Shown: positions 2,630 to 59,172 of the stretch, one piece after another | How positions within the stretch are numbered: the stretch's first letter is position 1 | Layout: each line of letters begins with the position of its first letter | Origin: a virus | Direction: 5' to 3' (one strand) | Virus record (IMG/VR): IMGVR_UViG_3300042308_000216 | Location: 31,878-95,877 of that record | DNA: 64,000 nucleotides | Program-made: the position numbers and the translations under genes | The notes under the pieces: generated by a model | What the model was told of the DNA's origin: nothing | What the model saw: only the letters and a program-made list of their open reading frames with translations | The model's database searches: none

Positions 2630-2632
2630 TAT

Positions 2633-14195: not shown

Positions 14196-17100
14196 ATGCC
14201 TGGAGAAAACCTTGGTACCACCACTATTGCAATTCCTTTACAGAAAATAAAACCGTATAAACCTACAAGTACTACACAAGCAGTACCTGAAACTTATGCT
14301 GGTCCTCAATCTAGATATGATGATAATTATTTCATAGATCAAAGTAAAATGAACTCTGAATTTTTTCAGAGTATGAGAGCTGAAAATCAAGGGTTTGGTA
14401 TGGAACTAGCTACCGCTGGTGCTAACCTTATTCCTAATATTGCATTAAGTATTGGTGAAACTGCTGGTTATTTATTTGATGTTGAGGATTGGTCAAACAT
14501 GATTCAAGGAAATAAAACTGATTATGGTAATGCTATAACTAAATGGGCTAGTGATAACAAGAATCCCTTTGGTCAAGTATACACAAAAAGCACTGATGGT
14601 GGTTTTGATATGTCAGACTCTGCTTGGTGGGTATCTAATGGTGGAGGGTTAGTAGAGTCTTTAGTTGCTTTTGGAATAACAGGATTTGGTGTTGGTAGTG
14701 TATTAGGCAAAAGTGCTTCTATGCTATCAAAAACATTAGGTGCTTATGGTAAAACTAAATTTGCTATTGAGGGTGCTGCTAAATTAGGTACTTCATTATC
14801 ATTAGCATATAGTGAAGGTGCTATGACTGGTGCTCAAGTATTTAAAGATGTGTATGATGATACCTATAATTTTGAGTATTTAAAAAATGTAAATGCAGGT
14901 ATGGGGGATAAGGAAGCTAAAGCAAGAGCTCATTATACTGCTACTGATGTTGCAGGTGAAGGTGCAACTAAAGCTGTTAGAACTAATACACTAATTAATA
15001 CATTTTTAAATATACCTGAAACAAATGTTCTATTTAGAAGTATGGGTGCATCTAGATATATAGATGATGCTTTAAAACTTCAAAAAGGAGAATTTGCTAG
15101 AGATGCTGTTGAAAGAATAAAGAAATTTGATGTTAATAAACATTTAACTAGACAAGGTATAGAACATTGGGGCAAAGAAACTGGCAGTGAAATGTTAGAA
15201 GAGATGGTCAATGTTTATGCTGAAGAGTCAGGTAAAAATGTTGGTAGGCTAGCTACAGGACAAGACATTGTTTCTCTTGGAGATATGCTAGCTAATGATG
15301 ATATATGGGCAGCAGGATTCTGGGGTGCTATTGGTGGTAGTATGAATGGTTTTGTTATGGGTAAAATGCCTAAGTGGGTTGTCCAAGAAGATGGAACTAA
15401 AAAAAGAACTACTGTTGGTGCATATAATAAAGAACAAGTAAAAGATAAATATAAAGAACAATTAACTGACCTTCAAGATAGATTAACAGAATTTGTTGAT
15501 GCTAGAGATGCTTTAGATATAGCAGCTAAGTCAGGTGATGAAAGAGCTTATAAAGAAGCTGCTGACAAAGTATTTAGTTATAATAGTTTCAACTCTATTG
15601 TAAAAGGTACTGAAGAACAGTTACTAAATGATTTTCAAGAGATAGCTGCATTTACTCCTGAGCAAGCTGCACAACAAGGTTTTGCATCAGACTACAAAGA
15701 AAGAGCTACTGAAAAAATACAATCTGTTAGACAAAATACAGCAGAGTGGAATAAGATTCAAGATAGACATTCTTCACAGGATTTAGATCAAGCAGGATTT
15801 CCTGAAACTATTTTTCAGCAACACATGAATGTTCAGAATAATAAAAAGATTATTCAAGATAACACAATTGAACTTGCTAAATTAGAATCAGAGATAGCAC
15901 AAGCACATGTATTAAGAGGTACAGATTTAACAACTACATCTTTTAATGATGTTAAATCTAGTATTGATGCTGTTGAGCATGCTTTTGAAATGGCTGCTAA
16001 AGATTTAAGTGATATTGACTCATTAAGCACACTTGATAGTAAAACTAGACAGAAAAAAATAGCAGAGCTTAGTAATAAATATGGTAATATTGAAAATGCT
16101 AAAATACAAATACAAAAGCATTTAGAAGAACTAGAAGAAAAAAGAGAAGACCTATTTAATAATTTAGAAATTCAAAAAGAAAATTTCTATTCTTTCATTG
16201 ACCCTGAAAACACAATGTCAGATGATGAAAAACTAGATAGATATAAAAATATAATTGCACAGAATAGTTCAGATATATATTCATTAACAGAAGGTAAGAA
16301 AGTATTAGAAACAAATAGAAAGATACTAGCTTCACAGATAGAAGAACTTAGAGTATTAAAAAGTGATAAAGGTCTTGAAAGATTTAAAGCTCTTAAGAAA
16401 GAAAAGATGGCTGAGAGAGATGCTCTTGATGCTCAAGCTGCTGCTAAAGCTAGAGCAGAAGCAGAGGCTAAAGCTAAAGCTGCTAAAGTTGAAGAGATTA
16501 AAGTTAAAAAGAAAGAAGCTCCAGAAACAGTAACACCACAAGAAGAAGAGATTATACAAGCCAACACTCCTGTAGAAAGTTTTGAAGAAGGTGTTTACTC
16601 AGGTGAAGGTTCAAATAAAGAAGGGTTAGAAGAGCAGTATAAAGAAATTACAAAGATAGCTGATAACTCAGATGAAGAAGGTAAAGTTAAAGACAGCTCT
16701 GGGCAAACTATTTCTGTTGGAGATAAACTTATGTATGGTTCTAACAAACTAGCTTATGCTAGTACTGTTGAATATATTGTAGAAGATGATAAAATTAAAC
16801 ATACATCATTAAAACTTAATCCTGAGACTAATCCTGATTTATTAACTGATAAATATGTACCAGGAACTAAATTAAAGATAAAGAAGTTAACACCAGAAGA
16901 ATTTAAATCACATGAGTTTTTTGCTCCTGATAATATTAAATTTATAGATGAAGTAGGTAGAGAAATATTAGTTGCTAATAAAGGACAGAAAGTAACATTT
17001 GAAATGTTAAGCCATCCTTATATGCAACCCATTGGTATATACAATGAAGCAGGAGAGTATCAAGCTATGCTGCATGCTGTTACTTATATTAATGATAATA

Positions 17101-20100
17101 GAGTTGTATCTGAGAATGTAGAAACTGATTTACAAACTTTAATTAATATTAGAGCTGCTGTTACAAATGAATTTCAAGATATTAAACTTAGTTCTAAAAG
17201 TAATGGTAAACTAAACCAGTTACCAATGTTCTATAGATTATCAGAACTTATTGATGAGAATGTAGAGTTTGCTATTGCAACATCATCTATTCAATTAAAC
17301 ACTAGTAAAGTAACACCTGTTGAAAATTTAGCTAATACTAAAGGCTACAAAGTAGGTCAGGTATATGCATTAACTGTTATGCCTGATGGTAGAAAGTTAG
17401 CTGTACCTGTAAAGACAACTAAGATTAAAGAAAACCCACAAGTACTTACAGAGTTAATGTCTGCTTTAGATATTTTCTTAAAAGGAGGTAATAGAGAAGA
17501 CTTACAAGCTGTTTTTGGTAAATACTTACATTCAGTATTTAGTAAAGATAAACTAACACCAGATGGTAATTCTTTTCAAGAAGACCCTAATGGTAATGAT
17601 AGATTCTATATTGACTTTACTTCAACAAATGTTAAAGGTATTATATTTGGAAAAGCAGGATTTTCTAAAAACTTTATTAGTGGTGATACACCTATAGATG
17701 CTTTAGAAGGATTAAAAAAAGAGTTAGCTTCTATTATTCAAGAGAGTTATATCAATCTTAATTTTCAAAGCTTAAAAGACCCTGATTTTGTAAAAACATA
17801 TGTAACAAGTAATGTTAGATTTTATCCATTACCTAATGGTAAGGTAACTGTGTTTGATAATCCAGTACTTGGATTTGACCCATCTACATTAATAAATGCT
17901 ACAGCACCTGCTGCTAAAGTAACACCACAACCTATTGTTACACCTACAACACAAAGTTCTGAATCTGTCTTTAATATAACTATTGAACAGATAAAAAACA
18001 ATATAGCAGAATTAAGAGCTAAAGAACAAGCAGAGTATGCTGCTATTGATCCTAATGATACAGCAGCAAGAAAAAAGATTTATGAAGACTATAATAAATT
18101 AATTACTACTTTAATAAATGAAGCAGAAGCTGATATAGAAAAAAGAAAAGAAGCAGAGTTAGAATTAGAATCTGAAAGAATTGTAGAAAGTACTGAAATT
18201 TGGAAAGATGAAGAAGGTCGTTTATTTAGAATTGATAAACTAAAAAACGGTAAACAAAGATTAGCCGCTACAGATGAAGAAGGTAAACTGCTTAGTGTAA
18301 TAGATATCTATGAAGGTTCTGTATCTCCTACTAAGTTTATAGCAGATGGAGAAAAAGTAAAAGACCAAGAAGTAAAAGAAAATAAGATAGTAGATAAAAT
18401 TAATGCTAAATATAAAGAAGAACTAGATGCTGTAAAACAAGTTAAACCTACTACTACACCTATTTCTGATATAGAAACTAAAAAAGCAGATATAGAAACT
18501 GCTTTTGATTATATAACTACTCGTAAATATAAAGGTGAAAATAATAGATTAAATGAAATAAATAAAATTGGAGAAGATCTTGCTAAACGCTTTGTAGCTA
18601 CTCTTAAAGAAAAAGGTTTAGTTAAAGAAGACTACAGAATGGCTCCTAGAACTGATGGGTCTGTAGAAAAAATGAAAGTAAATACAGATGATAAAGGTAA
18701 TAATTTAGGAAATGATTGGAGTACTGCTGGTAAATTTAAAGATGAGTTTAGAAAATTTGTTAATGTAGAATTAGCTTCTTTAAAAAGTAAAGCTACTACT
18801 ACACCTACAGCACAATCAACTACAGATACTAAAGCTGAAATAGAAAAAAGATTAAAAGAAGAAATTATATCTTTAGAAAAAGATTTAAAGGCTATTAAAT
18901 TTAAAGATGGAAATACACTAGGAAAAATGTTTCCTGATTGGTCAGTAGAAGCTGCTACTTTTATAAGAGAACATTTTAAAAAAGCTGTTACTGAAGAAGA
19001 TTATAATAAAGCAGTAAGATATGAAAACCTAGTAAACCATTTTGATGCTGTAGTTAAAAATGAATTAAATAAATTAACACTTCAACCTACAGCTCAACCT
19101 ACTGCTGCAGATATTAAAGCTGATATAGAAAATAGAATTGTTATTACTGGAACTGACCAAGGATTTGAAGTATATAATACATCAAATATTAAAAATGAGA
19201 AAGCAGGAACTGTAGCTGATGTTAGAAGAAAGTATTCTGATGATAAATATGAAATAGAATTTGGTAAAGGAGATGATAAAAAAAGTATTTTTTCTGATAT
19301 AAATTATGGTCAAAAAGAAGATTCCTATCATTATTTTATAACAGATAAAAAAACAAAGAAGAGATACTACGTAGTAGGAATTAGCAGTAGAGTTACTGGT
19401 ACTGATCCCCAAAGAGATGGAAGTCTATTTGCAACTATAGAGGACGATGGTAATATTACAGATTTTACAAGAACAGTATTAGAACTTGCTCTTATAAAAG
19501 AATTTGAAAATCAAACGAAAAAAAGAAAGAATATATTTAGACCTTTACCACAAAAATTTATTGACAAAGTAAAAGCTGCAGAACAAGCTGCTTTAGGGCA
19601 AGCTCAACCTACACCTGCTACAGAAACACCAACAACTCCACAAGAAAAAGGAGAGTTTTCTATTCAAGGTACATTTCGTGGATTAACTCATGTATTAGGT
19701 GATCCTGCTAATATGATTCCTGATCTTAGAGATACAGGATTTATTGATAAGCCAACTTTTTCTGAATCTGTTCAAAAAGGTAAAAAGTTTTTTACACTTT
19801 CTATTCCACAAGCAGATGATGTTTATAGACAAGGCTATTTATCAGTGTCTTTAGTATTTCCTGAAACAACAACTAAAACAATGGCTGATGTCAAAGCTGC
19901 TTTAGAAGCAAAAGTAGCTGAAGCTAAATCTGTTATTGCAACTGCAAGAGATAAAGGATCTAATGCAGAAGCTTTTTTAAAAAACAAGGTTAGTGCAGAA
20001 TACACAGAACAACCTTCTGTAACAGAACCAGTACCTGTAGTTGAACAACAACCTGTACCACAACCTACAGTTGAATTAAAATCTGCTGGTGGAGCAAAGT

Positions 20101-21461
20101 TTAACTTGAAACTACCTAAAGAAGATTCAGATTTAAGTATAACTACTACAGAAGAACTAGGTGTTGAACAAGTAGCACAAGAAGTATTACCTGCTTTAGA
20201 AGATAGATTAAGAGGATTTTTATCATCTATTAATGTAGATACATTAGTTGTAGATAATTTACAAGAAAGATTAAAAGAAAAAGGATTGAATACTGATGCT
20301 GTTGCAATATCAGATATATTACACAAAGCAATATTCCTAGATTCAGAAAGGTATAATACTATGGATTATGCTGAAGAGGTTGCTACTTTTGCAATTGAGT
20401 TTATGGGAGCTAGTAAACATGCTGAGGCATCTCCTTTAATTAGAAAAGCACTAGACAATATATCAAGTTGGGAAAAATACCAACAATACTATGATTTATA
20501 TAAGGATAATCCTATTTATAAAAACAACGAAAGAAAATTAAAAGTTGAAATACTTAGTAAGCTATTAGCTGAAAAAATAATAGAGAATAAAGATAAAACT
20601 AAAAAAACAAAACAAGATAAAAAGCTAACAACTTTAGAAACTATTATTAATGACATACTAGCTTTGTTTGATAAAATATGGAAATCAGATTACTATAGAG
20701 CTGTTGATAGATTTTTAAAACAAAAAGGTATTCAAACTAAAGGAGTTAATAAAATTAACATTAGACCTTTTGATGCTGTAATAAATGAGATTGTAGATGA
20801 TATACTATTTAATAATACATCTAAAATAATTAATAATGCTAATAGAGCTAGAAAAGGAGAAACTGCTGTTTCTTTAAAAGAAGTTTTAGAAAACAATCCT
20901 ACTATAAATGAGATATATAATAAACTAAACTCTTTAGGTTTTATGTTTACAGGTTCTCCTGCTCTTTCAAATGAAGGAACTATATACAGAGAATCTAATG
21001 ATACTTTACATGATTTAGATTGGCAAGTACCAAAAGAGTTAGAAGATAATTGGTTAGACATAATAAAAGAAACTTTTCCAGAAATAGGGTATAAGATTAA
21101 TGAAAAAACAAATCAAGCTCAGATTTTTAGTAAGGGTGAAAAAACTACTCACACTTTAATGATTAAAGGAATGCCTGTTGACTTTTTTATAAGTGTTAAT
21201 CCTCCATCCAATAAAAATACATTTGGAGATATGAGATGGCAGGATACCTTTGAAGCTAAGATGGATATAGGTAGAGACAAAGACATCAGAGACTTAATTG
21301 ACTTTAAAACTTTATTTAATGATTACTTTTCAAATCCTGGTTACTTATATTATTCTTTAGGTCAAGTTAAACCAGGAAAACAAATTGAAAAATATGTATC
21401 TTTGCAAGATAAGGTTAACACCCTTATAGAAGAAGGTAAAGCAACTAAATTTTGTAAGTAA
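14196..21461 (+). CDS. giant ejected cargo (polyvalent) protein with membrane-type N-terminus, repeat-delimited cassettes, degenerate zincin and C-terminal nucleotidyltransferase
   Basis: 2421 aa; Gly/Ala-rich hydrophobic helices in the N-terminus, long coiled coil, KA(D/E)IE repeats at 18126-19136, GSPAL..G...R....HDLD...DFF...K...RDKDIRD at about 20950-21295. Confidence 0.75.
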   Translation: MPGENLGTTTIAIPLQKIKPYKPTSTTQAVPETYAGPQSRYDDNYFIDQSKMNSEFFQSMRAENQGFGMELATAGANLIPNIALSIGETAGYLFDVEDWSNMIQGNKTDYGNAITKWASDNKNPFGQVYTKSTDGGFDMSDSAWWVSNGGGLVESLVAFGITGFGVGSVLGKSASMLSKTLGAYGKTKFAIEGAAKLGTSLSLAYSEGAMTGAQVFKDVYDDTYNFEYLKNVNAGMGDKEAKARAHYTATDVAGEGATKAVRTNTLINTFLNIPETNVLFRSMGASRYIDDALKLQKGEFARDAVERIKKFDVNKHLTRQGIEHWGKETGSEMLEEMVNVYAEESGKNVGRLATGQDIVSLGDMLANDDIWAAGFWGAIGGSMNGFVMGKMPKWVVQEDGTKKRTTVGAYNKEQVKDKYKEQLTDLQDRLTEFVDARDALDIAAKSGDERAYKEAADKVFSYNSFNSIVKGTEEQLLNDFQEIAAFTPEQAAQQGFASDYKERATEKIQSVRQNTAEWNKIQDRHSSQDLDQAGFPETIFQQHMNVQNNKKIIQDNTIELAKLESEIAQAHVLRGTDLTTTSFNDVKSSIDAVEHAFEMAAKDLSDIDSLSTLDSKTRQKKIAELSNKYGNIENAKIQIQKHLEELEEKREDLFNNLEIQKENFYSFIDPENTMSDDEKLDRYKNIIAQNSSDIYSLTEGKKVLETNRKILASQIEELRVLKSDKGLERFKALKKEKMAERDALDAQAAAKARAEAEAKAKAAKVEEIKVKKKEAPETVTPQEEEIIQANTPVESFEEGVYSGEGSNKEGLEEQYKEITKIADNSDEEGKVKDSSGQTISVGDKLMYGSNKLAYASTVEYIVEDDKIKHTSLKLNPETNPDLLTDKYVPGTKLKIKKLTPEEFKSHEFFAPDNIKFIDEVGREILVANKGQKVTFEMLSHPYMQPIGIYNEAGEYQAMLHAVTYINDNRVVSENVETDLQTLINIRAAVTNEFQDIKLSSKSNGKLNQLPMFYRLSELIDENVEFAIATSSIQLNTSKVTPVENLANTKGYKVGQVYALTVMPDGRKLAVPVKTTKIKENPQVLTELMSALDIFLKGGNREDLQAVFGKYLHSVFSKDKLTPDGNSFQEDPNGNDRFYIDFTSTNVKGIIFGKAGFSKNFISGDTPIDALEGLKKELASIIQESYINLNFQSLKDPDFVKTYVTSNVRFYPLPNGKVTVFDNPVLGFDPSTLINATAPAAKVTPQPIVTPTTQSSESVFNITIEQIKNNIAELRAKEQAEYAAIDPNDTAARKKIYEDYNKLITTLINEAEADIEKRKEAELELESERIVESTEIWKDEEGRLFRIDKLKNGKQRLAATDEEGKLLSVIDIYEGSVSPTKFIADGEKVKDQEVKENKIVDKINAKYKEELDAVKQVKPTTTPISDIETKKADIETAFDYITTRKYKGENNRLNEINKIGEDLAKRFVATLKEKGLVKEDYRMAPRTDGSVEKMKVNTDDKGNNLGNDWSTAGKFKDEFRKFVNVELASLKSKATTTPTAQSTTDTKAEIEKRLKEEIISLEKDLKAIKFKDGNTLGKMFPDWSVEAATFIREHFKKAVTEEDYNKAVRYENLVNHFDAVVKNELNKLTLQPTAQPTAADIKADIENRIVITGTDQGFEVYNTSNIKNEKAGTVADVRRKYSDDKYEIEFGKGDDKKSIFSDINYGQKEDSYHYFITDKKTKKRYYVVGISSRVTGTDPQRDGSLFATIEDDGNITDFTRTVLELALIKEFENQTKKRKNIFRPLPQKFIDKVKAAEQAALGQAQPTPATETPTTPQEKGEFSIQGTFRGLTHVLGDPANMIPDLRDTGFIDKPTFSESVQKGKKFFTLSIPQADDVYRQGYLSVSLVFPETTTKTMADVKAALEAKVAEAKSVIATARDKGSNAEAFLKNKVSAEYTEQPSVTEPVPVVEQQPVPQPTVELKSAGGAKFNLKLPKEDSDLSITTTEELGVEQVAQEVLPALEDRLRGFLSSINVDTLVVDNLQERLKEKGLNTDAVAISDILHKAIFLDSERYNTMDYAEEVATFAIEFMGASKHAEASPLIRKALDNISSWEKYQQYYDLYKDNPIYKNNERKLKVEILSKLLAEKIIENKDKTKKTKQDKKLTTLETIINDILALFDKIWKSDYYRAVDRFLKQKGIQTKGVNKINIRPFDAVINEIVDDILFNNTSKIINNANRARKGETAVSLKEVLENNPTINEIYNKLNSLGFMFTGSPALSNEGTIYRESNDTLHDLDWQVPKELEDNWLDIIKETFPEIGYKINEKTNQAQIFSKGEKTTHTLMIKGMPVDFFISVNPPSNKNTFGDMRWQDTFEAKMDIGRDKDIRDLIDFKTLFNDYFSNPGYLYYSLGQVKPGKQIEKYVSLQDKVNTLIEEGKATKFCK
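18126..19136 (+). repeat. four dispersed in-frame repeats (aagc[t/a]ga[t/a]atagaaa, encoding [K/E]A[D/E]IE) with Pro/Thr linkers
   Basis: Copies at about 18126, 18483, 18831 and 19116; copies 2-4 preceded by cct/act-rich linker codons. Confidence 0.75.
21397..21404 (+). promoter_or_regulatory. putative Bacteroidota -7 promoter element TATCTTTG(C) upstream of the vRNAP gene
   Basis: TAnnTTTG match about 57 nt before ATG 21461; the identical 9-mer precedes the next giant gene. Confidence 0.4.
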
Positions 21462-24400
21462 TGAGTAATTGTCAAACGACTTTCCAGGATAGAACTATCC
21501 CTTCTGGGGATTTTGAATTTCAAATAGCATCTAACCAAATTGATTTATCACCAACAGACAAGTCTGATTTAGATACAATGTCTTTACTGACATTAGACTT
21601 ATCAACAATACCTTTACTATCTCCTGATAAGATTAACTCTGCTCAACAAGAGGAGATGATTAATTGGTTAACAGGTGAAGTAATTAACTTCTCATTAAAT
21701 AATGCTGTTAAAGGTGTTGATGAAAAAGAGTTAATAAATAATGCTTTTAACGATGCATCAGAGCTTCTTAAAAGCGGTGCTTTACAAGCTGTAGAATTAG
21801 GTATACCAATATTAGAAGAAAGAATAAACAGTATTCTTGAGGTATATGATAAGCTAAAAGAGATTGTACAAATTAGAGTTAATAATTTTGGTATTGATTT
21901 TGAAGCTGATGCTGTTACACCAGAAGATGCTACTGAAAATTATGAAGAAGATAAAGCTTTAAAAGTAAATCCTTATACAAAAATTGGTCAGGAAATTAAA
22001 AGACAGCTTTTTACTATTTATGATTTAGATAGTTTACAAGAGGATGGTTCTTACACAGAAGATGATGTAAAAAGAACTTGGTTTGGATTCCCTGCTTACA
22101 AATCTATTAACCAAGTATTACCCACAATACTATCACACTCTAAAGATTTACCTGCAGAGTTTGATGTGATTAAAGCAAAGATGCTAGATAGCAAAGATGC
22201 TAATAAATGGTTTGTACCCTTACTTGATAAATTAAGTGAGGCTGATGGACAAGTTAGAAATCAGTTTTCTAGATGGGCTAGTAAAGCACAAATCAATTTA
22301 AAGTATTTATTGTTTGATACCAAGACTAATGAGTTTCAATTTAACAATAGTAACTCAGGTAGGCAAGTAGATATCATAACTAACAAATGGAAGAATAACC
22401 TTATACAAACAGAGCTATTTAAAATTAATCCAGACACTAATGAGTATGAGTTAGATAGAGAAAAAGCAGATGCTATAACTAAAAACTTTGAAGCATTCAG
22501 TGAAAAGTATAAAATGCTTAAAGAGAATTATCCAGAAGAGTTATTTACAGAACTGGCTGATATCTTAAAAAGTATTGGTGTTGATATTAAACCAAGAGAA
22601 ATTAAAAGAATGCAAAGGTTTCTTGATACACAAGGAACCAAATGGGGGAATAGTCCAAGAGCTAAATTTAGTCAGTTCTTTGTAGCTGATAAAGGTGCAG
22701 TGGATTTTATGATTCAAAGATTATCTAAAGCAGATAAAGAAGCTGAAGGTTCTTTTAATAAATACAATCCACTATCTAATAATACTGGTGTTAGAGCATT
22801 AACATTGTTATACTCTTATTACCAAGAAATTTCTACTAATGATTCTTACAAGAATAGTAACAATGATACTATTTATGCATATAGTCCTAAGAAATATGCA
22901 ACAGACCAATTTCAAAGAATAGCTGATACAGCTTATTTAGGTAGATTAATGGAAACTCAATTTGCTAGTAACTCTACTTGGGGTAAAGCATTGATGTCTG
23001 AGGATCCTGATACAAGAGCTAGATTTCTAGAAGTATTCACATTAGATTATTTTGATGGTGCTACAGGTAAAGGCTCTAAATTAAATACTCCATTTGACCA
23101 ACTATCTGCATCTGAAAGAGAAAAGTTTTTACTGACTTGTTTTCAAAACCAAAATAGAAAAGTACAAAGTAAATACAGATATGGTTCTACTTCTTATCTA
23201 ACTATGTCTGATAAGAAAACCTTAATTAGTGTTCAACATATATTAGAAGATGTTGATATTAATCCAGAAACAAATAAGCTAGGTAGTAAAAGTATTGACT
23301 TATTATATCAAGTATTTAAAGCAGAGCAGCAAAGGATTAGAGAATTTGAAGCATTAAGTGCAGAGAATAAAAAAGGTTTATCAAAAGAATATGTAAAAGG
23401 TGCAAAAGAGTATATCTTAAATCCTTGGGTTACAAAATATAAAGCTGAAGGAAAAGAACTTGACTCATCAGAAGATGTTAAAATAGCTATTGAAGAATAC
23501 TATAATGATATTATAAATACTAAAATAGCTACTTGGAAAGAGGTTGGTATTATATCTACAGATAATGAAGATAATATAACTACAACTTTTGATAAAGAGT
23601 ATTTTGAGAATGTTAAAAATAGTAAAGTAGGTAGTAAAGCAAATATTAATGCTGCTATTGCTTATGCTGCTATTGACTATGAAGTAAATACAATAATTGG
23701 TAACTTAAATCTATTTCAATTATTTGCTGGTGACCCAGCTAGTTATTGGAAAAACAATGTTGATGATACATTAGTAAATGTTGGTAAACGTCTAGCAGCA
23801 CAGATTGCTCCTGGAGATTCATTAGCTAATACTAGATATACAGACATTGCTGGTATTAATGGGCATAGCTATACACAAGTTATTGCTAAAGACCATAAAA
23901 TGATATCATCATCTATCAAGTATCTAACTAAGCTGCTTGATGGTAAAGAAGTTACTGATAAAGAGATTGAAGATTATAGAGCAGGTAATACTAAAGCAAT
24001 AGAAGAAAAATATCCTAATGCTGCAGCTTACTTTGATATAGAAGCTACTGATGCTCAGGAATATACTACAGCATTAGAGCATGCTTACAATCTATACCAT
24101 GAAGGTAAGTTATCTGATAAAGTATATAAAGACTTAGCAAATAAATTAATTAATGATAGAGAGTTAAGTGATAGTGATGTTAAAGTGCTAATGCAACCTA
24201 TGAAACCAGTTTACTTTAATGGTGATGTTAAGTCAGCAGGTACTGGTTCATTAAATTATTATGATATGTCTTACATTAAGACTTCATCATTTCCATTGTT
24301 AAAAGAATTTACAGTAGGTACTGAGCTTGACAAGTTAAGAAAACAACTAGAGAAATTACAAGACCCAACTGGTTCTAAAGACCCTAGCCAAATTAAACTT

Positions 24401-27400
24401 GTTAGAATGGTAATGAGTTCAGGTATTAAGATTGGTGCTGTGCAGAATCCTGTAACAGTATTCAATCCTGATGGAACAGTTAATCCTGATATTGACTTTA
24501 CAAGCTCTACAAAGTCTTTAACTAGAGATGGATATAGAATTCAGTTAGAGGTTCCTTTAAAAGATAAGAAAGAAGTTAATAGAGGTACACAAGAGATTAA
24601 ACTTTTGTTTACAGATTTACTTGACCATAAATTTGCTAATGGTAAAACAGGACAACAGTTAAAAACTGAATACCTTGATTTAAACAGACAACTATTTAAA
24701 ACTCAATTAGAGATATTTAAAAACCAAATAGATGCAGATGAAAAAGGTGAATTTAATATTCAACTATTAAGAGATAAACTAGTAGAAGAAGCACAATCAA
24801 GAAACTTTTCACTGAATGAGATTGAGTCTTTGAGACTAGTTGATTTAGACTCTGAAGGTAAGTTTGTAATTCCATTAGTTTTTAACTCAGCATCAGATAA
24901 GTTTGAAAGCTTAATGATTTCTTTAATAGATAACTCTGTTAGAAAACAAAAGCAAACTGGTTACAGCTCTCCATTAGGTTCATCTTCTGGATTTAAATTT
25001 CAGAATGACCTTAAAAGTATAGATAAGAGTAAAATTATTTGGGTTGAAGGTTTTGATCCATCAGGAGATTTAAAGCAACAAAGAATTGTAGATGGTAAAG
25101 TAAGAGGTTCACAAGTATTTGTACCTTGGAAATTCAGAGATAACAATGGTAAGCTTTTAAATGCAAAAGATTTTACTAAAGAGTTGCCTGATGGTAGAAT
25201 AGTAATTGATCATGATAAATTACCAAAAGATATATTAAAGTCATTTGGATTTAGGATTCCTACACAGGGATTAAACTCAATGGCTTATATTGAGATTGCA
25301 GGATTTTTACCAGAAGAATCTGGTGACTTGTTAATTGCACCTGCTGAATTTACAAAGCAGATGGGTTCTGACTTTGACATTGATAAATTATATAGTTACT
25401 TATATACTACAGAATTTAATTATAAAACTGGTAAACTAGAAAAGTTTGTATTTAATAATAAAGATGTATTTGAAATACTATCTAGTACTAACTCTAGTTT
25501 AGTTACTAAAGACAATAAAGATTACAGATTAAAAACATTAATCAAAGAGTTTGGATATATTAAAGTAGCCAAATCTCTTTTCCAATTTTATAACAGTAAA
25601 ATAGATACTCTTAAAAAAGAGTTAGATGATAAGTGGTCATTACATGAAGCTTTTGTAAGTAATGTACTAGACACTATTGATGTTAAAGAAGCATCATTGG
25701 ATACAAATAAAACATTAATCAATAAAGCTTTTAGAGAGAATGAAATCTATGTTGCTTTCTTGAGAGATGAGTTATCAGAGTTAAGGTCTGTAATATCTGC
25801 ATTAGAGAAAAATGAATTAGATGAAGGTGTTAATGAATACCTTGTAGATAAATTTGATATCTATGTAGATGAAGTAAGAACAGAAAGTATAAATGAATTA
25901 CTTAGAAAAGAGTTTGAATTAAATAATAGATTAGAAAAATCTGTTGTAATAAAAGAAAGTCTTAAGAAGTTTAATGCTTCTATTAGTGATACTGTAAAAG
26001 TTGCTTTAGATATTAAGAATGATATTTTTGAGACTAAAAGAGATTTAAGAAATATATTAAAGTACACTAGTACATTACAGAATGAAATTCTAGATATGCA
26101 CATCACAGTGCTATCTGACCCATCAGATTTAGTACAGTCTAAAGTAACATCAGCATTAGGATTTGGTAAGCTAGGTGAACTTAAAAAGGTATATGATAAA
26201 GAATCTAAATCAAAAGCAGAAAGTACTAGCCCTTTATCATCAGGATACCAATCTCAGAAATATTTATCTGCAAGAGGTGGTAAAGCAGGTACAGGATACT
26301 TTAGTGCATTAAATGTATTTGTATCTGTTATGCAGGGACTAGGATTAAAGTATAATGTATCTACTCCTGTAGATAATGGTAAATTTGCAATGATAGAGAA
26401 AAACCTAGTTATCCATAAAAAAGGTAATGGGTTGAGTAAGAATGTTGATAACATGAATAACCTTAAATCTGAGAATGCTGTAGCATACCAATCAGCAGCT
26501 GTGGATGATGAGAAAGAACAGATTATGGCTTCTCTTAATATCACATCAGAAACATTCTATGCTATTGGTGCATGGATATTAGATGGTCATTCACAAGAAG
26601 CTATTACAGGTATTTTAACTCAGCCTATTGTTGCTGAGTATATCAATGCAATCAATAATAAAACAGATATTTTTTCAGATTTTACTAAGAATGCAGATCT
26701 TATTGTGTTTAATGAGTTGTATGAAAAGTACTCTAAGATGACAGGTCTTAGTCAAGAAATATTAAATGAAACTGATTTTAATAATACTGTATTATCAGAA
26801 GATGTTTTATGGAATTCTTACAAAGCTACTACTAAAGATGCTAATTGGGCTATGACTCAATTAACTGCTCTACATAAATTTAGAGAAGCTGATGTTATGG
26901 GTAAAAGCATACAAAAAACCATCAGTGCATTTAGTGTGGATTCTAAAGGATTAGGTAAATCTTTTATAGAAGTTGGTTTAAAGTTAGATGATATTAAAAC
27001 TGAAAGAGAAAGTGGTAAAATTACTAACATAGAAAAACTACTTAATCAATCTGTAGGTGGATTAGCTGTGCAATATTCTTTAGAAACAGTTCACCAACTA
27101 TTTAGTAAGTTCTACCCATACTTAATTCCTGAAAGTTATAACAAAGTTACTTTTGATGAGTATTTACAAGTTACATTTAAAGATAATCTTTCAGCAGAGC
27201 AAAGAGAAAAAGAGTTTAGAGATTTCTATAACCACATGAAAGCTGGTGTGTATGCAAATATGCTTCAGCAACCTGGTGTAGATTTATATACTAGAAGAAA
27301 AGAGTTAATGTATGGTGAAAATTCATTAGGTAAAAGAGTACAAGAACTGCAAAAAACTACTAAGAACCCATTTTTAATTAAACTTACTCCTAATGTAGCT

Positions 27401-30400
27401 ACTATTGTAGGAGATCCTGATACAGTAAGTATGAGGTCTATTGGTGGTGAGTTATTTAATGAAGATGATTTATATGTTGGCTTTTTAGATTTATTTAATA
27501 AACCTGAAAACAGACAGTTAGCTAAAGACTTAGTTGATTACTTCTATATTAATGGTGGTAGTCAGAAAGCTAGAGAGTTTTCTAAATATATTCCAACTGG
27601 GTTTATGGTTGCTAGTGGTTATGCAGATAGTTTAAGAAGTGCTAACTTATTTAACCTATCAAATATTCTAGGTTCACCTCAAATGTTTTTACAGAACTAC
27701 ATCAGAAACAATCCTAGTAAAGCACCTCAACTTAATAGAGGAGATTATACTATGAGTCCTGATGGTAAAGTCACTGTTACTAGTGACCAATTTACATATG
27801 TACCTAAAAATGGTGTTGATGTTGGTGTTAGTACAGCAATACCTTATGTTTCAATACCAGAAGTAAAAGTAAATCCAGATGATAGTATTAAAGTAACTAT
27901 AAGACTTTACATGTATGATGACCAAGGTAGTTATGTAGAAATTCCTAGATTGGGATTTACAACATCAAACTATTCAGGTACAGAGTATGGTAGTAGATAT
28001 TCTGCTATAGATTCTAATGCTGTAAAACAAAGAGTTCAAAATCCTAATACAGTGCAAGAACCTGTTAGGCAAGAAGCTAGTTCAGATCCTGTTATTCCAA
28101 ATAGTATTAAAGTAGCTGCTAATGACTTTGAAGCACTAAACATTAATAAGGTTAATAACAAAGAAGATGTTAAAGTAACACTATCTATTATTAATAACAG
28201 TACATCAAAAGCATTATTAGACTTACTTGATAAAATAGGTAGCTTAACTTTAGAAGCTACTCCAGGTAATTCTTCATATAAAGCAGGTAGAATTACAATA
28301 GATAGTAGAATTAAAGATCCATCTGTACTACAAACTAAAGTATTGCATGAAGTTACACATGCTGTAACATCTGAAATAATTAATAAAATACTATTAAACC
28401 CTAATAACCCTAACTTTGAAGGATTATCTGAATCTCAAAAGTTAGCTTACATGAGGTTAAATAAAACATTTACTACATTAAGACAATCTGTAATTGATGG
28501 TAGAGTACCTGGATTAAACAAAGAAGGATTAGAATTATTTGAAGCTAAAATAGATGCCCTTAAAAAAGGTCAAAAAGGAATTGACTTTACACCAGATGAT
28601 GTTGAGTATAATCCATATTTAAATCTTAAAGAATTTTTAGCAGAAGCATTTTCTAATACTACTTTTCAAAAGCAATTAGATGCTATGAAATTTACTGAAG
28701 ACAGATCAATGCTTCAGAAGTTGTTAGAAGATATTGCAAACTTCTTAAATAAATTTGTAGCTGACTACAATAAAGATAATGTACTTGCTTCTGTACTATA
28801 TGATGGGTTTACACTAGCTGGTGGTAATGAAGTAAATATTTATTTTAAATCTGGTGAAAATAGAATACTATCTAATTTAAATTTAAATTCTTTTACAGGT
28901 AAAGATGGTAAAAGATATGCTTCTGTAGAACATGCATACCAATCTTGGAAATCAGGATCATTTGATGAATCAACATATACATCTCCTAATTGGGTATTTA
29001 ATGGTGGAGATAATTATAAAGTATCTGGTAATAAAGGTACTAAAACAGAAAACAATTGGAATCTAGATTTAATGAAAGGTCTTATTAGACAATCATTAGA
29101 TCAAAACCCAAATGCTAAACAAGCATTACTTAATACAGGAGATAAAATACTTACTCATAACCAAGATAATACTATTTGGAAAAATGCTTTTCCTCAGATA
29201 TTAATGGAATTAAGAAAAGAGTATTATGATGCAGGATTATCTGGTGTTAACAATCCAAGTGATTATGTTAATCACTCTGGTGGTGCTGTAGGTTCTGATG
29301 AATCTTGGGATATTATAGGTAGACAATTTGGTGTAACACAGCATAAGCATTACAGAGAACCAGGTGCATTAAAGCTAGACTCAGCTGAACTTGATAGTAG
29401 AGGTATTAAACCTGTAAATGTATCTGAAGCTTTATACAATGAAGGTATTCAAAAATCTACTAGAGCAGCTCAACAAATGTATGGGTTAAAAGGTCAGATA
29501 AAAATGAATTACATTATTCGTAATTGGGCACAAGTTAAAAATGCTGACTCTATATATGCAATAGGTGTAATTCTTAAACCTGGTAATAGACTTAATACAA
29601 AAGATGATAGAATAGCTTTAGTACCACAAGTAAAAGGAGGTACAGGATATGCAGTACAGATGGCTATTAATGAAGGTAAGCCTGTATATGTATATGATGG
29701 CACAAAGAATGGGTGGTTTAAATATGATTACAATATAAAAGATTTTGTACCTACAAGTATACCAACACTTACTAAAAACTTTGCTGGTATAGGCTCAAGA
29801 AAATCTCAAGATTGGAATAAAGATTTACAAGCTATTAGAGATGTTTATGCTAATACTTTTAAAGTACAGCAAGATACTTCTACAAATACTGGAGGTAATC
29901 CAAAAGGAGAGAAAATTGCTGATGGTATGTATGTAAACCAACAAGGACTATCTCCACAAGAAGAACTTGAATTATTTGAACTTGTTAGACCAATTTTAGA
30001 GCAACAAGCTGTAAAAAGTAATAAAGGTAAATCAGCTCCTAAAATGGCTGGATTAAATTTAAATTGGGATTATGTAAGTAATAGAAGAGGGCAACAGACA
30101 AGAATAAATGTTGGAGAAACATTAAAACCTAATGATACTTATGGTTGGTTTACACAATCTGCTAATGGTCAAGAGTTATATCCAATTACTGGTAGAATGA
30201 TAGAGTTAATGAGTAAAGCTACTGGTATAGATGTTAGTAATTATGATGGTTCTATTATAAATATATATGATTCTAATAGTTTTATTGGTAACCATCCTGA
30301 TATTGATGAAAGTAAGACAGCAGAAAAATATCCTGTTGTTGTTGTTAATATAGGAGGTCCAGGAAATATTGTATTAGGTAATAAAAAAGTTGATTTAAAT

Positions 30401-32407: not shown

Positions 32408-35400
32408 AACTTGTAGGGTAATTTCAAATGATGATATTTTTAATTCTTTAGAAGAATTAATGCATCAACATGTAGCAACTGTATTGAGGACTAGATTTGA
32501 GATGGCTAAAGAGGCTGGTACTGCTGATAGAATGTTAACTTTTCTTATTGATAGATACAAAAAGCACAAGAATAGACAGCCAGAAGATAGAATATTTGAT
32601 AACTACAAAGATGCTAGAGACTATTTTTTAAATACAAGACAAAACTATGACCTTGTAAACCCACCTAGAAAGATTGTAGGTAGTGGTAGCTATGCAGTGT
32701 ATTCATACTCAGGTATGCAATATGCTAATATTATCAGTCAGTTATCAGAAAAACTTGATGAAGAACTAAGCTACTATGAAGAAAAAACTATAGAAGAAAT
32801 TAGAACTAAGCAAAAAGAAGCTAATGAAATCTTTAATGATGAAGGTGAATTATATGCTCCTGATGGTGACATTGACTATTCTGTTAGTATAGAATCACAA
32901 TATGACTTTGTACTTAAAAGAAAAAAGGAAGAGATGACTAACCTTGACAGGTTAATTGCTTTAGAAAAGTCTAAAAGAAATACTGAGAATGTTGAGAAAT
33001 TAACTAAGGCTAAAGAAAGATTAGAGGAAGATATTAAAAAACTAATTGATACTCCTAACTTTTCTGATATAATGAATATAGCATCTGATGATTTAGAAGA
33101 GATAAATACTATTTTAGATAAAGATATGCTATCACCACAAGATCTAGTTATTGTAAAAAACAAACTTGAGTTTTGGTTGAGTGATAAATTTAGAGATGCT
33201 TTTTTTACTAGTGCAGATAAGATTAATGAAGTACCTAGTTATAAAGCTTTTTTAGTTAAAAAAGGAGAGTTTGATAGAAAGAGAGTTCAATGGGAAGACT
33301 TAGCTTCTGCTTACATGAATAGTGTTATTAAAGATGTTACTAATAATAACTATACAGTAGAAGAGCTTAAGATAATGAAAAAACAATTACTAGAGATTAA
33401 TATTGGTCAAGGTCAGATGAGAGATTTATCTACTGACTCTAATATCTTTATTCAAGTAATTGATACTAAAATGAAAGAAGCTAGTGAATTTGCTAGACAA
33501 GAGGTACTTACTTTTCAAAAGAAATTAACTGAAGAAACAGAAGCTTTAATAAAAAGAGCAGGTACTAATAATCCTAAGAAATTATATGAACTGTTTTTAC
33601 AATTAGATTCTAAAGGCAACTGGTCTGGTGGTGTTGTAAATAGATTTTCTCAAAAGTTTTTTGATGCTAGACAAGCAATACAAGTTACAGATTGGTCAGA
33701 TACTGAGAAAGTAAAAGCTAAATACAAATGGTTAAAAGAAAACACAATTACTTTTGACCCTCGTAAACTATTTTATGAAGATTACCTAGAAATGGAAGAA
33801 GGTAATCGTCCAGCATTATTTGATGAAGAGTCTAGAGAAGCTCATATACAAGAACTTAAAAGAGAACTTGGTGAAAGAGGCTTTGCTAATTACTTTGAAA
33901 AACAAAAGAAAGTATTTGAAGATTTCAAAGAAAGATATAATGAGCTTAAAAATACTACAGAAGGTACAGAAGAAGAAGTTAAAGCTGCTTTAGATGCATG
34001 GAAAAAAGAATGGTCTCCATTCTACTACCTTGATAAAACAACAGGTGCTAATGTAAGTGCTGGTAAATTTTTAGGTTATAATTATATTGTAAGTGTACCT
34101 AGAAGATTTAAAAGAGATGGTGAGCCTACTGGTTGGTATGATAAAAACTTTGATAGAATTGAAGCAGACCCTGATTATTTAAAATACTATGAATTCTTAA
34201 CAGATTCTCTACAGAAGTTTAAAGCATACTACCCATCAGATAATGAGTTACAAACAAATTACTTACCTGAGCTTAGAGAAACCCAAGTATTAAAACAATT
34301 CTTTACTAATCCATTAGCATTAAAATCTAATCTATATGATTTCTTTATAGACCAGACAGCAGAAAATGAGATATTCCAAGATCAAACAGATTCTATGGGT
34401 AATCTTATTAGAATATTACCTGCACATATGATGTCTAATAATATGTCAAAACTAAGTGCAATAGAAAAAAGAATACTTGTTGATGAAGCAGTTAAGAAAA
34501 TACCTGATACTACTAGTGTAGAGTTTAAAGCTTTATTGCAACAAATGCAGTATGATGCAATACAAAAGAAACTTAAAGAAAAATCTTTTGATTTATTTAA
34601 AGTATTATCAGCACATGCTGTAACAGCAGAAACTTACAAACATAAAACTAGAACAGAAGATTTTCTTAGAATAGCAAAAGACTTTGTTTATAATGCAGAA
34701 AGAATAAATGTAACTGCTAATGGACAAACAAGTTCTTCTATCATGGGTTTCAATACACAAAAAGATGGTTTAAGAAATCTAATTAATGCTTTTGATTATG
34801 CTGTAGATTCTTGGTATGGTTTAAATAAAAATAAAAAACCGGGTAAACTAGTAGCTAAAGATTTAGAATCTAAAAAGAAAATAGAAGACTATGAAGCCAG
34901 TTTAAAACAGTTAAAAGAGTCAGAGCAAGATGACGAAACTGTAAAAAAAATCAAGGCTATTGAAGAAAATATTAGATCATTACAAAAAATATTTATCACT
35001 TCAAATGCTTCAGACTCTGTGCTTAAATATATCCATATAAAGTCTATGGGTTGGAATCCATTCTCTGCAGTAACTAACTTAGGTTTTGGTTTTATATCTA
35101 ACTATACACATGCAGCAGGTGAGCAAGACTTTACTTCTGAAGAACTTAATAAAGCATATGCTTATTTACTAAACAATGTTTTCAGAGCAACAAGAGCTGT
35201 TAATATGAAAACTGCAGTTAAGATAAGCCAGCTTATGATGGAGTATGGTGTAGTTGGAGATATTAGAGAAGGTACTGGTAGTCATGCTATTAAAGGTATT
35301 AAAGAAAAATTTAAAATTCTATTACCTTATGAAATGACTAGTAGAGCAGAGTTTGTTAACCAAGGTTCTACATTTATAGCAATGATGCTTAATACAAAAA

Positions 35401-36263
35401 ATATTAAAGATTTAGCTAATAATGACAGAACTCTATTTGATGCTTACACATTAGATGCTGATAATAACCTTATATGGAATGAAGCTGAATTTGGTCCACA
35501 AGAAGCATGGCAATCTTTAGGTAAAAATAAAACTGCTTTTAAATTAAAAGTAGAAGCTGTTAAAAAGATTATTCATGGTAACTATGACCCTAATAGTCCT
35601 GTTGCAATTAAAAAGACAGCTTTAGGTAGAGCACTAATGATGTTTAGAAACTGGGTAGCTGAAGGTTTTGCTAACAGGTTTGAATCTGAATATGAAAATA
35701 TTAAGTTAGGTAGACAAGTAAAAGGTAGATATAATTCTTTTTATAATGCTAAAACAAAAGAAGGTGAACCTGTTGGTATTGGTAGGTCAATAAGCTTAAC
35801 TTTACAAGAGATGGCTAGAATATTTACAAAAGGAATGTATAATTCTAAAGGTGTTAATGCTCTTACAGATGTAGATAAAGCTAACCTCAAGAAAAATGCC
35901 ATGGAGTTAAATATTTATTTATCTATACTAGCATTGACTATGTTACTTAAATATATGAAAGATGATGATGATGAAGAAGATGCTATGTTTTTAACTTTTA
36001 TGATTAATAATCTTAATAGACTTCAAACTGATATAACTTTCTATACTAGTCCATTATCTTTTGAAAAACTACAAAGAAATAGTATTCCTGCTTTTGGATT
36101 TATTACTGATATTGCTAGATTAAATAAAGCTGCTTACAAATATATTATGGGTAGAGATGGTGAAAATGGCTCTACTACTTTTTTAGAATCTTTCTTTAGA
36201 GTCTTTCCTATGGGATTTGCTTACTACAGAACAGAAGCTCTTTTAGAAGAAGTACAAGAATAA
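32400..36263 (+). CDS. large ejected cargo protein with C-terminal membrane segment
   Basis: 1287 aa helical protein after the vRNAP; IHGNYD...LGRALMMFRNW motif and hydrophobic LNIYLSILALTMLL followed by an acidic DDDDEED run, typical of the last crAss-like ejection protein. Confidence 0.75.
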   Translation: MGKTCRVISNDDIFNSLEELMHQHVATVLRTRFEMAKEAGTADRMLTFLIDRYKKHKNRQPEDRIFDNYKDARDYFLNTRQNYDLVNPPRKIVGSGSYAVYSYSGMQYANIISQLSEKLDEELSYYEEKTIEEIRTKQKEANEIFNDEGELYAPDGDIDYSVSIESQYDFVLKRKKEEMTNLDRLIALEKSKRNTENVEKLTKAKERLEEDIKKLIDTPNFSDIMNIASDDLEEINTILDKDMLSPQDLVIVKNKLEFWLSDKFRDAFFTSADKINEVPSYKAFLVKKGEFDRKRVQWEDLASAYMNSVIKDVTNNNYTVEELKIMKKQLLEINIGQGQMRDLSTDSNIFIQVIDTKMKEASEFARQEVLTFQKKLTEETEALIKRAGTNNPKKLYELFLQLDSKGNWSGGVVNRFSQKFFDARQAIQVTDWSDTEKVKAKYKWLKENTITFDPRKLFYEDYLEMEEGNRPALFDEESREAHIQELKRELGERGFANYFEKQKKVFEDFKERYNELKNTTEGTEEEVKAALDAWKKEWSPFYYLDKTTGANVSAGKFLGYNYIVSVPRRFKRDGEPTGWYDKNFDRIEADPDYLKYYEFLTDSLQKFKAYYPSDNELQTNYLPELRETQVLKQFFTNPLALKSNLYDFFIDQTAENEIFQDQTDSMGNLIRILPAHMMSNNMSKLSAIEKRILVDEAVKKIPDTTSVEFKALLQQMQYDAIQKKLKEKSFDLFKVLSAHAVTAETYKHKTRTEDFLRIAKDFVYNAERINVTANGQTSSSIMGFNTQKDGLRNLINAFDYAVDSWYGLNKNKKPGKLVAKDLESKKKIEDYEASLKQLKESEQDDETVKKIKAIEENIRSLQKIFITSNASDSVLKYIHIKSMGWNPFSAVTNLGFGFISNYTHAAGEQDFTSEELNKAYAYLLNNVFRATRAVNMKTAVKISQLMMEYGVVGDIREGTGSHAIKGIKEKFKILLPYEMTSRAEFVNQGSTFIAMMLNTKNIKDLANNDRTLFDAYTLDADNNLIWNEAEFGPQEAWQSLGKNKTAFKLKVEAVKKIIHGNYDPNSPVAIKKTALGRALMMFRNWVAEGFANRFESEYENIKLGRQVKGRYNSFYNAKTKEGEPVGIGRSISLTLQEMARIFTKGMYNSKGVNALTDVDKANLKKNAMELNIYLSILALTMLLKYMKDDDDEEDAMFLTFMINNLNRLQTDITFYTSPLSFEKLQRNSIPAFGFITDIARLNKAAYKYIMGRDGENGSTTFLESFFRVFPMGFAYYRTEALLEEVQE

Positions 36264-58361: not shown

Positions 58362-58502
58362 GTTTAAGTTTTAATATTGTTAAAAATATAATTAAACAGA
58401 GCGTGCTTGGAAACTTAATCCACTACACTATATGCTTCTCTGTAAAATTATATTAGGACCATCACAGTTATGATGGACTCCACCAACTAATCCCCATTAG
58501 TG

Positions 58503-59167: not shown

Positions 59168-59172
59168 ATTTG

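Follow-up and report, generated by a model that had tools for sequence, protein, structure and literature searches.

A 2421-aa protein of a Crassvirales phage, P0001, probably carries near its C-terminus a self-contained, exchangeable effector cassette (aa 1999–2390), in which a helical domain is joined to an intact Pol-beta-superfamily nucleotidyltransferase belonging to an unclassified family. The cassette is likely to fill the last variable slot of P0001, a probable phage-type polyvalent protein. P0001 is encoded as one open frame on the plus strand (nt 14196–21461) in the cargo block of a 64,000-nucleotide window, the whole stretch of viral DNA analyzed here, which is that of a Crassvirales phage. 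The body (nt 14196–17921), which extends to about aa 1243, is conserved at 37–80% identity in orthologs P0156–P0170. It is followed by a variable region (nt 17922–20189), a string of cassettes whose boundaries are Pro/Thr-rich linkers near aa 1244, 1415, 1531, 1628, 1802, and 1954. The final cassette begins with an N-terminal part (N-part; aa 1999–2150, nt 20190–20645), a helical domain whose fold has no assigned match, and continues through a helical connector modeled with lower confidence (aa 2151–2228, nt 20646–20879) into the nucleotidyltransferase domain (aa 2229–2380, nt 20880–21335), whose Pol-beta fold was assigned from its motifs and predicted structure. The protein closes with a 31-aa tail (nt 21366–21458) that ends in GKATKFCK, contains the single cysteine of P0001 (aa 2420, nt 21453–21455), and is 68–96% identical in orthologs, where it is kept whichever cassette stands before it.

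The limits of the cassette (nt 20190–21365) were obtained by ortholog comparison and lie close to the coordinates 20200–21330 given in a preliminary description of this DNA. In orthologs P0156–P0169, body and 31-aa tail are retained and the nucleotidyltransferase module is missing. In the closest ortholog, P0156, whose flanks are 80–84% identical to P0001, the module is replaced by an ART-like domain that matches ART-PolyVal with an E-value of 4.8e-4, under the Pfam cut-off, and in P0160 an ART-PolyVal domain directly ahead of the tail is above that cut-off (E 4.4e-9). The module recurs at 62–83% identity, and at varying locations, in proteins that are otherwise unrelated. The same holds for single cassettes of the variable region, which are found in otherwise unrelated giant phage proteins at 41–88% identity, so that P0001 and these giants have domains combinatorially in common. 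LPD23, LPD38, and ddrB-ParB, domains that are hallmarks of polyvalent proteins (PMC5512222), occur in proteins with other P0001 cassettes. Composition gives no sign of recent import of the cassette, because CpG, depleted across the genome, is nearly lacking from both the cassette and its flanks. P0016 is an example of a stand-alone homolog; a third homolog search, aimed at short stand-alone forms, returned one fragment only, and a search for distant related loci with a single domain returned one locus.

All sequence strings quoted in the preliminary description are present in the open reading frame at 14196–21461, with the nucleotidyltransferase motifs at aa 2250–2366. The Pol-beta motif hG[GS] followed by [DE]h[DE]h is present as FTGS (aa 2251–2254) and HDLDW (aa 2272–2276) at the two ends of the segment FTGSPALSNEGTIYRESNDTLHDLDW (aa 2251–2276, nt 20946–21023), with GS at nt 20952–20957 and HDLD at nt 21009–21020. 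The two motifs are classically 9–13 residues apart, and the gap between GS and DxD in P0001 is longer, at 18 residues. A third carboxylate, D2329, is held by PVDFF (aa 2327–2331; VDFF at nt 21177–21188) on an adjacent β-strand (model strand 152–159). The pattern is completed by FEAKMDIGRDKDIRD (aa 2352–2366, nt 21249–21293), which includes K2355, R2360, K2362, D2363, and D2366 (nt 21258–21293). Conservation of these residues was counted in alignments made with hmmsearch, which cover about 140 copies of the domain in 134 proteins from public data, most of them 22–35% identical. G2253 and S2254 are each conserved in 138/138 copies, R2265 in 141/142, D2273 in 142/142, D2275 in 144/144, and D2329 in 138/141; the corresponding counts in the C-terminal motif are 129/130 for K2355, 127/129 for R2360, 129/129 for K2362, 127/129 for D2363, and 128/129 for D2366. 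G, S, and both Asp residues of DxD are invariant among these homologs. Judged from sequence, the motif pattern exceeds chance. Near-invariance of 11 active-site positions at low overall identity, in a signature pattern, points to selection for catalysis, and because almost every copy retains GS, R, and DxD together with the third D and K..R.KD..D, the domain is probably an active enzyme.

Structure prediction supports a Pol-beta nucleotidyltransferase fold for the C-terminal domain, as the preliminary description had proposed. The AF2 model has an overall pLDDT of 78, with blocks 6–20 at 86–98 and the core above 90, and Foldseek ranks 1–27 are all Pol-beta nucleotidyltransferases, with a probability of up to 0.98 and a best E-value of 4.8e-3. 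With VIA-align, where Z-scores of 8–9.6 barely exceed the best Z of 7 to 8 that is typical for models that Foldseek does not match clearly, ranks 1–22 are nucleotidyltransferases with Z up to 9.6, and the matches span model residues 55–206. MenT1 leads (Z 9.2–9.6, rmsd 3.1–3.3 over 126–136 residues), accompanied by ANT(2'')-Ia (Z 8.0–8.9), MenT3 (Z 7.9–8.7), LnuA (Z 8.4–8.5), TM1012 (Z 8.2–8.3), Megavirus poly(A) synthase (Z 7.8–8.3), and JHP933 (Z 6.5–7.5), and unrelated folds begin at about Z 6. In the model, GS follows the first helix and strand, DxD lies at strand 100–103, the third D on strand 152–159, and the conserved K, R, and D residues on two C-terminal helices; these secondary-structure positions suggest that the conserved residues cluster.

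Resemblance in fold did not extend to membership of a named family. The preliminary description had called the domain AbiEii/MenT-like, and this holds for the fold, with MenT1 and MenT3 among the nearest structures, but not for membership of DUF1814: PF08843 matched neither the window domain nor any of 41 homologs at E-values up to 5, and the PADLOC AbiEii profile matched none of the 41 members at E-values up to 1 and nothing in the phage genome. The domain is therefore MenT-like in its predicted fold and not a DUF1814 member by profile. No match to the family profiles of PF10706 (ANT(2'')/Aminoglyc_resit) or LnuA was obtained, and no family emerged when Pfam, PHROG, PADLOC, and PDB sequences were searched with the domain, with the whole protein, and with 41 or 32 homologs. 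No nucleotidyltransferase turned up among PDB sequences in profile searches, and tblastn against phage GenBank entries with the cassette and the body as queries found no match. A protein language model suggested DUF7277 and PF10706 for this domain, and hmmscan confirmed neither lead. Along the C-lobe helices of the model, K2355, D2363, and D2366 are nearly invariant; their spacing differs from that of K189 and D211, the motif III Lys and motif IV Asp of the catalytic site in MenT3.

The N-part had been read in the preliminary description as a degenerate zincin in which EEVAT (aa 2060–2064, nt 20373–20387) replaces HExxH. This reading was not borne out: HExxH is absent, and no zincin rises above noise. 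The family motif is E-E-x-x-H/Y, and among 159 copies its first position is E in 99, K in 22, P in 13, and H in 6, which leaves no HExxH parent family. The last position is H in 91, Y in 40, T in 9, and K in 7 of the same copies, and P0001 has Thr at the family's usual His. Conserved residues of the N-part are D2040, K2044, E2061, Y2095, Y2102, and Y2108. The model is all-helical (pLDDT 75), where a zincin would combine a mixed sheet with its active-site helix. Its best VIA-align Z is 4.9 and its best Foldseek E-value 0.5, and the scores of the catalytic center of anthrax lethal factor (Z 4.2) and of Certhrax (Z 4.1) lie within noise. LPD23 was also considered as a language-model lead for the N-part; P0182 carries LPD23 (aa 1484–1536), and the lead was dropped because the N-part profile has no match there.

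Gene order agrees with the earlier designation of P0001 as a cargo protein. A muzzle gene (2633–7432) is followed by the cargo block, in which P0001 stands directly ahead of a plus-strand gene (21461–32407) for a 3648-aa protein with a crAss-type virion RNA polymerase (vRNAP). This protein matches phi14:2 gp66 (PDB 6VR4) over aa 672–1329 with an E-value of 1.5e-25 and also contains an SF1 helicase and weak NADAR and AlkB-like matches. It begins with MSNC, and its start overlaps the stop of the cargo gene; terminal cysteines lie opposite one another at gene junctions. Because BLAST detects nothing similar to its body among the proteins of cultured phages, the cargo status of P0001 rests on this order. 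Mass spectrometry of crAss001 virions detected the corresponding RNAP-associated giants, gp47, gp49, and gp50 (PMC10172136), and the annotation of Flavobacterium phage FpV4 lists its vRNAP protein as virion structural; neither the N-part nor the nucleotidyltransferase domain was found in FpV4 gp30–gp33. By analogy, P0001 is probably packed in the virion and injected next to the RNA polymerase.

If P0001 is packed in the particle and injected together with the polymerase, the cassette enzyme would act in the first moments of infection, a timing that depends on both of these presumed steps. Drawing on an NTP, it would attach a nucleoside monophosphate to a hydroxyl group on a host target, by means of two metal ions that D2273, D2275, and D2329 would hold. 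As the target, we tentatively favor the 3' end of a host tRNA or another RNA, by analogy with MenT1 and MenT3, which add nucleotides to tRNA 3' ends (PMC7450476, PMC10435456). A host protein, or a small molecule or signaling nucleotide, would be nearly as likely, and a tRNA target is not implied by the fold, since ANT(2'')-Ia and LnuA, whose acceptors are small molecules, tie with MenT. The fuller scenario, in which Crassvirales load a MenT-like nucleotidyltransferase, from the fold group that includes abortive-infection and toxin–antitoxin toxins, into a protein thread that is injected ahead of the DNA and, as a first-wave weapon, block host translation through tRNA 3' extension, while sister phages use an ADP-ribosyltransferase in that slot, is doubtful as a whole.

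The slot occupied by the cassette alternates with ART-PolyVal-type domains, which would suit an enzyme that modifies a host protein by nucleotidylylation, such as AMPylation, in parallel with the ADP-ribosyltransferase in the slot of sister phages. Polyvalent Pol-beta nucleotidyltransferases have indeed been classed as protein-modifying, with a predicted transfer of NMP to a protein (Iyer et al., 2017; PMC5512222), but those enzymes constitute another, minimal family, Polbeta PF18765, which matched only 1 of 41 members here (E 0.02), and none of the nearest structures (MenT, ANT(2''), LnuA, and TM1012) is protein-modifying; we consider a host protein an unlikely substrate when it is taken singly. 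Somewhat less probable again is the modification of a small molecule, such as a host defense signal nucleotide or a metabolite, in the manner of ANT(2'')-Ia and LnuA. Both tie with MenT in structural score (Z 8.0–8.9 and Z 8.4–8.5), their canonical DxD is present, and PF10706 occurs, as a lead only, in 17% of the members of a language-model neighbor cluster. Against this, the HMM search gave no PF10706 match, and we know of no phage precedent in this fold group.

The preliminary description had further linked the enzyme to the phage's own RNAs, and its observation that neither tRNA-Arg(TCT) (59172–59244, minus strand) nor the tmRNA (58500–58881, minus strand; Rfam 72.6 bits, missed by ARAGORN) has an encoded CCA was confirmed, with none directly after either gene. 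A service to phage nucleic acids, by CCA addition or repair on these two RNAs or by tailing of early transcripts from the co-injected RNA polymerase, would fit this feature, the adjoining vRNAP gene, and the place of Megavirus poly(A) synthase among the top folds (Z 7.8–8.3), with CCA-adding heads at Z 5.4–5.9. The link to CCA ends nevertheless amounts to co-occurrence: the cassette is dispensable, being absent from the closest orthologs with the same body and tail, relatives place it differently with respect to the vRNAP, and it contributes a minimal catalytic domain from which the neck, body, and tail domains of CCA enzymes are absent. Host CCA-adding enzymes, moreover, mature tRNAs whose genes lack an encoded CCA. 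CCA repair by the cassette enzyme is unlikely, and the wider role in phage nucleic acid metabolism is improbable. Still further down the scale, and very improbable, is a catalytically dead domain that acts as structure or spacer within a giant ejection protein; the N-part of P0001 has Thr at the usual His, but all 11 active-site positions are intact in P0001 and nearly invariant across about 140 low-identity copies.

The Crassvirales rank with the most abundant of known phages, and the roles of their giant injected proteins outside transcription are largely obscure. P0001 offers a cleanly delimited cassette with an apparently active enzyme, judged by its motifs, of a family that databases do not name, in a slot adjoining the virion RNA polymerase. 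If this enzyme is delivered and active, the particles of these phages would contain host-modifying enzymes that can be interchanged, much as the T4 particle contains Alt, and the fold group of the MenT/AbiEii defense toxins would also serve phage attack. Should the host-tRNA reading be true, these phages would have an effector system that is modular, delivered by the virion, and comparable to the polymorphic toxins of bacteria. With about 140 copies in the sample and an invariant active site, the family is a direct target for biochemistry.

Among known enzymes, CCA-adding enzymes hold tRNA with neck, body, and tail domains, whereas the phage domain of about 150 aa is followed directly by the 31-aa tail, and only the head domains of CCA-adding enzymes align with it (Z 4.2–5.9), well under the MenT/ANT group. 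ANT(2'')-Ia, LnuA, and TM1012 tie with MenT in structural score and are of similar size with a canonical DxD, but ANT(2'')-Ia and LnuA are free-standing resistance enzymes that act on antibiotics, and nothing in the phage domain suggests such an acceptor. MenT1 (Rv0078A) and MenT3/TglT (Rv1045), the tRNA-extending toxins of M. tuberculosis in the AbiEii/DUF1814 family, have in common with the phage domain the architecture of a small bi-lobed nucleotidyltransferase, in which the N-lobe bears GS, DxD, and a third carboxylate and helices of the C-lobe bear a conserved Lys and a conserved Asp (PMC7450476, PMC10435456). They differ from it in the spacing from K to D, which is 8–11 residues in the phage family and 15–22 in MenTs, and in the auto-phosphorylated Ser/Thr two residues before the first Asp (S78/T39), where the phage domain has Leu and its homologs Leu, Val, or Ile. 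MenT is also encoded with a cognate upstream antitoxin gene, whereas the phage domain lies inside a 2421-aa open reading frame with no separate antitoxin gene. In genomic setting, P0001 is comparable to crAss001 gp47, gp49, and gp50, phi14:2 gp66, and FpV4 gp32, which belong to the same block of a muzzle gene, small cargo proteins, and then giants, the vRNAP being one of them. The nucleotidyltransferase family of P0001 is larger than, and differs from, the minimal Pol-beta nucleotidyltransferases described in polyvalent proteins by Iyer et al., 2017 (PMC5512222). In its overall design, P0001 is nonetheless like the phage-type polyvalent proteins of that study, giant mobile-element proteins that string together conflict-type enzyme domains, and its relatives, like those proteins, carry ART-PolyVal, LPD23, LPD38, and ddrB-ParB.

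The window derives from a Crassvirales phage, whose IMG/VR record measures 95.9 kb (95877 nt). The product of the ORF at 2633-7432 matches the Pfam profile of the crassvirus muzzle protein (crAss_MUZ, E 1.5e-118), and the only matches of the muzzle and of the RNA polymerase region, at 22-32% identity, are in crAss-like, Cellulophaga and Flavobacterium phages. Five large genes, all on the same strand, lie 3' of the muzzle gene. The gene for P0001, a cargo-block protein (14196-21461, +, 2421 aa), overlaps by one base the virion RNA polymerase (vRNAP) gene (21461-32407, +, 3648 aa), whose product contains a crAss-type virion RNA polymerase at aa 672-1329 (phi14:2 gp66, PDB 6VR4, E 1.5e-25). At aa ~2450-3600, this protein also contains a clear SF1 helicase (AAA_30, E 1.4e-20) and weak NADAR (E 0.0067) and 2OG-Fe(II) oxygenase/AlkB-like (E 7.9e-5) matches, both under the Pfam cut-offs. 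CpG depletion is extreme across the whole record (observed/expected 0.12 overall); the ratio drops as low as 0.01-0.03 in the 12 kb at 22124-34123 within or overlapping the vRNAP gene, with a single CpG in the 6 kb at 22124-28123, and depletion is weaker (0.39) in the final 6 kb of the record. GpC, by contrast, stands at 1.13.

Homologues of aa 1-1960 of P0001 reveal a conserved body (aa 1 to about 1250-1430, 37-80% identity) and a conserved C-terminal tail of 31 aa with the terminal motif GKATKFCK (68-96% identity), separated by a variable region. This region is split by six Pro/Thr-rich linkers (aa ~1244, 1415, 1531, 1628, 1802 and 1954) that form short repeats at the DNA level too, and the segments between them reappear singly in otherwise unrelated giant proteins at 41-88% identity, some of which carry LPD23, LPD38 or ddrB-ParB. 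P0156, the closest orthologue, aligns at 80-84% identity through aa 1998 and from aa 2391 onwards, and the stretch replaced in between comprises 130 residues that give an ART-PolyVal-like hit (E 4.8e-4, under the Pfam cut-off); in P0160, an ART-PolyVal domain above the cut-off sits directly ahead of the same tail. By this comparison the cassette spans aa 1999-2390 (nt 20190-21365), nearly the coordinates assigned in the preliminary description. Its two components, an upstream domain (N-part) and a nucleotidyltransferase (NT) domain, are absent from all checked body orthologues (P0156-P0168). The module is 62-83% identical to modules close to the N-terminus of the relatives P0002-P0007 and P0009, and P0002 (3093 aa; gene at 7218-16499 of L001, an IMG/VR contig of 111.5 kb) has two in tandem, at aa 69-481 (83% identical to the window) and, in diverged form, at aa 759-1158 (25%). 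In P0010 and P0011, a C-terminal module accompanies the same NADAR-like and helicase regions as in the vRNAP protein.

No match was found for the NT domain, whole P0001 or a 41-sequence alignment in Pfam, PHROGs, PADLOC or PDB sequences. Searching 1.84 billion representatives exhaustively with HMMER recovered 158 relatives, mostly giants of 500-4600 aa. Alignments of 16 and 41 relatives, which share 21-33% identity with the window, contain an invariant set of residues (G, S, G, R, H, D, D, D and F) and a second set conserved at 90% or more (W, K, R, K, D and D); profile re-alignment of every copy in the retrieved set (about 140 domain copies) finds the catalytic positions essentially invariant. 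All the strings quoted in the preliminary description are present in P0001: EEVAT (aa 2060-2064), FTGS (aa 2251-2254), HDLD (aa 2272-2275), VDFF (aa 2328-2331) and AKMDIGRDKDIRD (aa 2354-2366). An AlphaFold2 model from the 41-sequence alignment (pLDDT 78 overall, core 86-98) places GS after the first helix and strand, DxD at the start of strand 100-103, the third Asp on strand 152-159, and the K/R/K-D/D cluster on two C-terminal helices. Nucleotidyltransferases fill all leading ranks of a Foldseek search of this model against PDB, with a best E of only 4.8e-3. VIA-align gives a coherent top group spanning the whole domain (model residues 55-206), comprising MenT1 (Z 9.2-9.6), ANT(2'')-Ia (Z 8.0-8.9), MenT3/TglT (Z 7.9-8.7), LnuA (Z 8.4-8.5), TM1012 (Z 8.2-8.3), Megavirus poly(A) synthase (Z 7.8-8.3) and JHP933 (Z 6.5-7.5); after a drop, unrelated folds follow at about Z 6. 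We therefore accept a Pol-beta NTase fold and consider the domain probably active.

Membership of DUF1814/AbiEii, as previously proposed, is not supported: none of 41 family members matches PF08843 with E values allowed up to 5, a hydrophobic residue replaces the auto-phosphorylation Ser/Thr of MenT, and an antitoxin gene is lacking. The domain represents an unclassified family that would work like the MenT/ANT(2'') group.

The N-part (aa 1999-2150), 5' of the NT domain, is a separate domain with 153 copies, about half of which have an NT domain behind them, and an N-part precedes about half of the NT domains; it is found alone and in tandem as well. Its conserved residues are D2040, K2044, E2061, Y2095, Y2102 and Y2108. 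It had been described as a degenerate zincin in which EEVAT replaces HExxH, a reading that we do not retain. The family counterpart of EEVAT is E-E-x-x-H/Y, with His as its first residue in no more than 6 of 159 copies, so there is no HExxH family from which the N-part could have decayed. Its model is all-helical (pLDDT 75) and has no fold match (Foldseek E at least 0.5; best VIA-align Z 4.9), the catalytic centre of anthrax lethal factor (Z 4.2) and Certhrax (Z 4.1) falling within VIA-align noise.

The conserved residues of the NT domain are consistent with two-metal nucleotidyl transfer. No acceptor can be deduced from this fold, since MenTs (tRNA) tie with ANT(2'') and LnuA (small molecules). 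An RNA 3' end is weakly favoured, and a protein or small-molecule target is a serious rival, the alternative filler of the same slot being an ART. The preliminary description also linked the domain to the phage tRNA-Arg and tmRNA. The tmRNA matches Rfam RF00023 over its full length (72.6 bits; not reported by ARAGORN) and lies at 58500-58881 (-), near tRNA-Arg(TCT) at 59172-59244 (-). Both indeed lack an encoded CCA, but a role in serving them is unlikely: orthologues can do without the cassette, and it is missing the tRNA-holding domains of CCA-adding enzymes.

We infer that P0001 is packaged in the virion from its cargo-block position, the detection of RNAP-associated giants in crAss001 virions (PMC10172136), the annotation of the FpV4 vRNAP protein as a virion structural protein, and the near restriction of cysteines to facing termini. 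The FpV4 protein has a long N-terminal extension in the position corresponding to P0001, and the P0001 body has no detectable match among cultured phages. The cargo-block giants of the window are almost devoid of cysteine except at these ends: P0001 has one, at 2420 of 2421 (codon 21453-21455); the vRNAP protein has Cys 4 (codon 21470-21472), Cys 560 and Cys 3646 (codon 32396-32398); and the 1287-aa protein of ORF 32400-36263 has one, at position 5 (codon 32412-32414). The remaining window ORFs contain 1-3% Cys. Cys makes up 0.13% of all residues in the first 155 retrieved relatives, yet it falls within residues 2-6 in 113 of them and within the last 6 residues in 78. The only Cys of FpV4 gp32 is residue 4286 of 4287, and gp33 begins with MAC; in L001 the ORF upstream of P0002 ends VTCFK and P0002 starts MKNSC. 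Many giant relatives carry after Met a short conserved motif, C-[PIV]-N-x-[NS]-x-[PL]-[ED]-[FW]-K (e.g., MACINPNTPEFK, MSCPNKSLPEYK), which could serve as an address tag or form a small N-terminal domain. The vRNAP protein starts MSNCQT (21461-21500).

In a survey of polyvalent proteins, Pol-beta NTases were found only in proteins of conjugative elements and belong to a different, minimal family (PMC5512222). The phage-type polyvalent proteins of that survey share the organisation of P0001.
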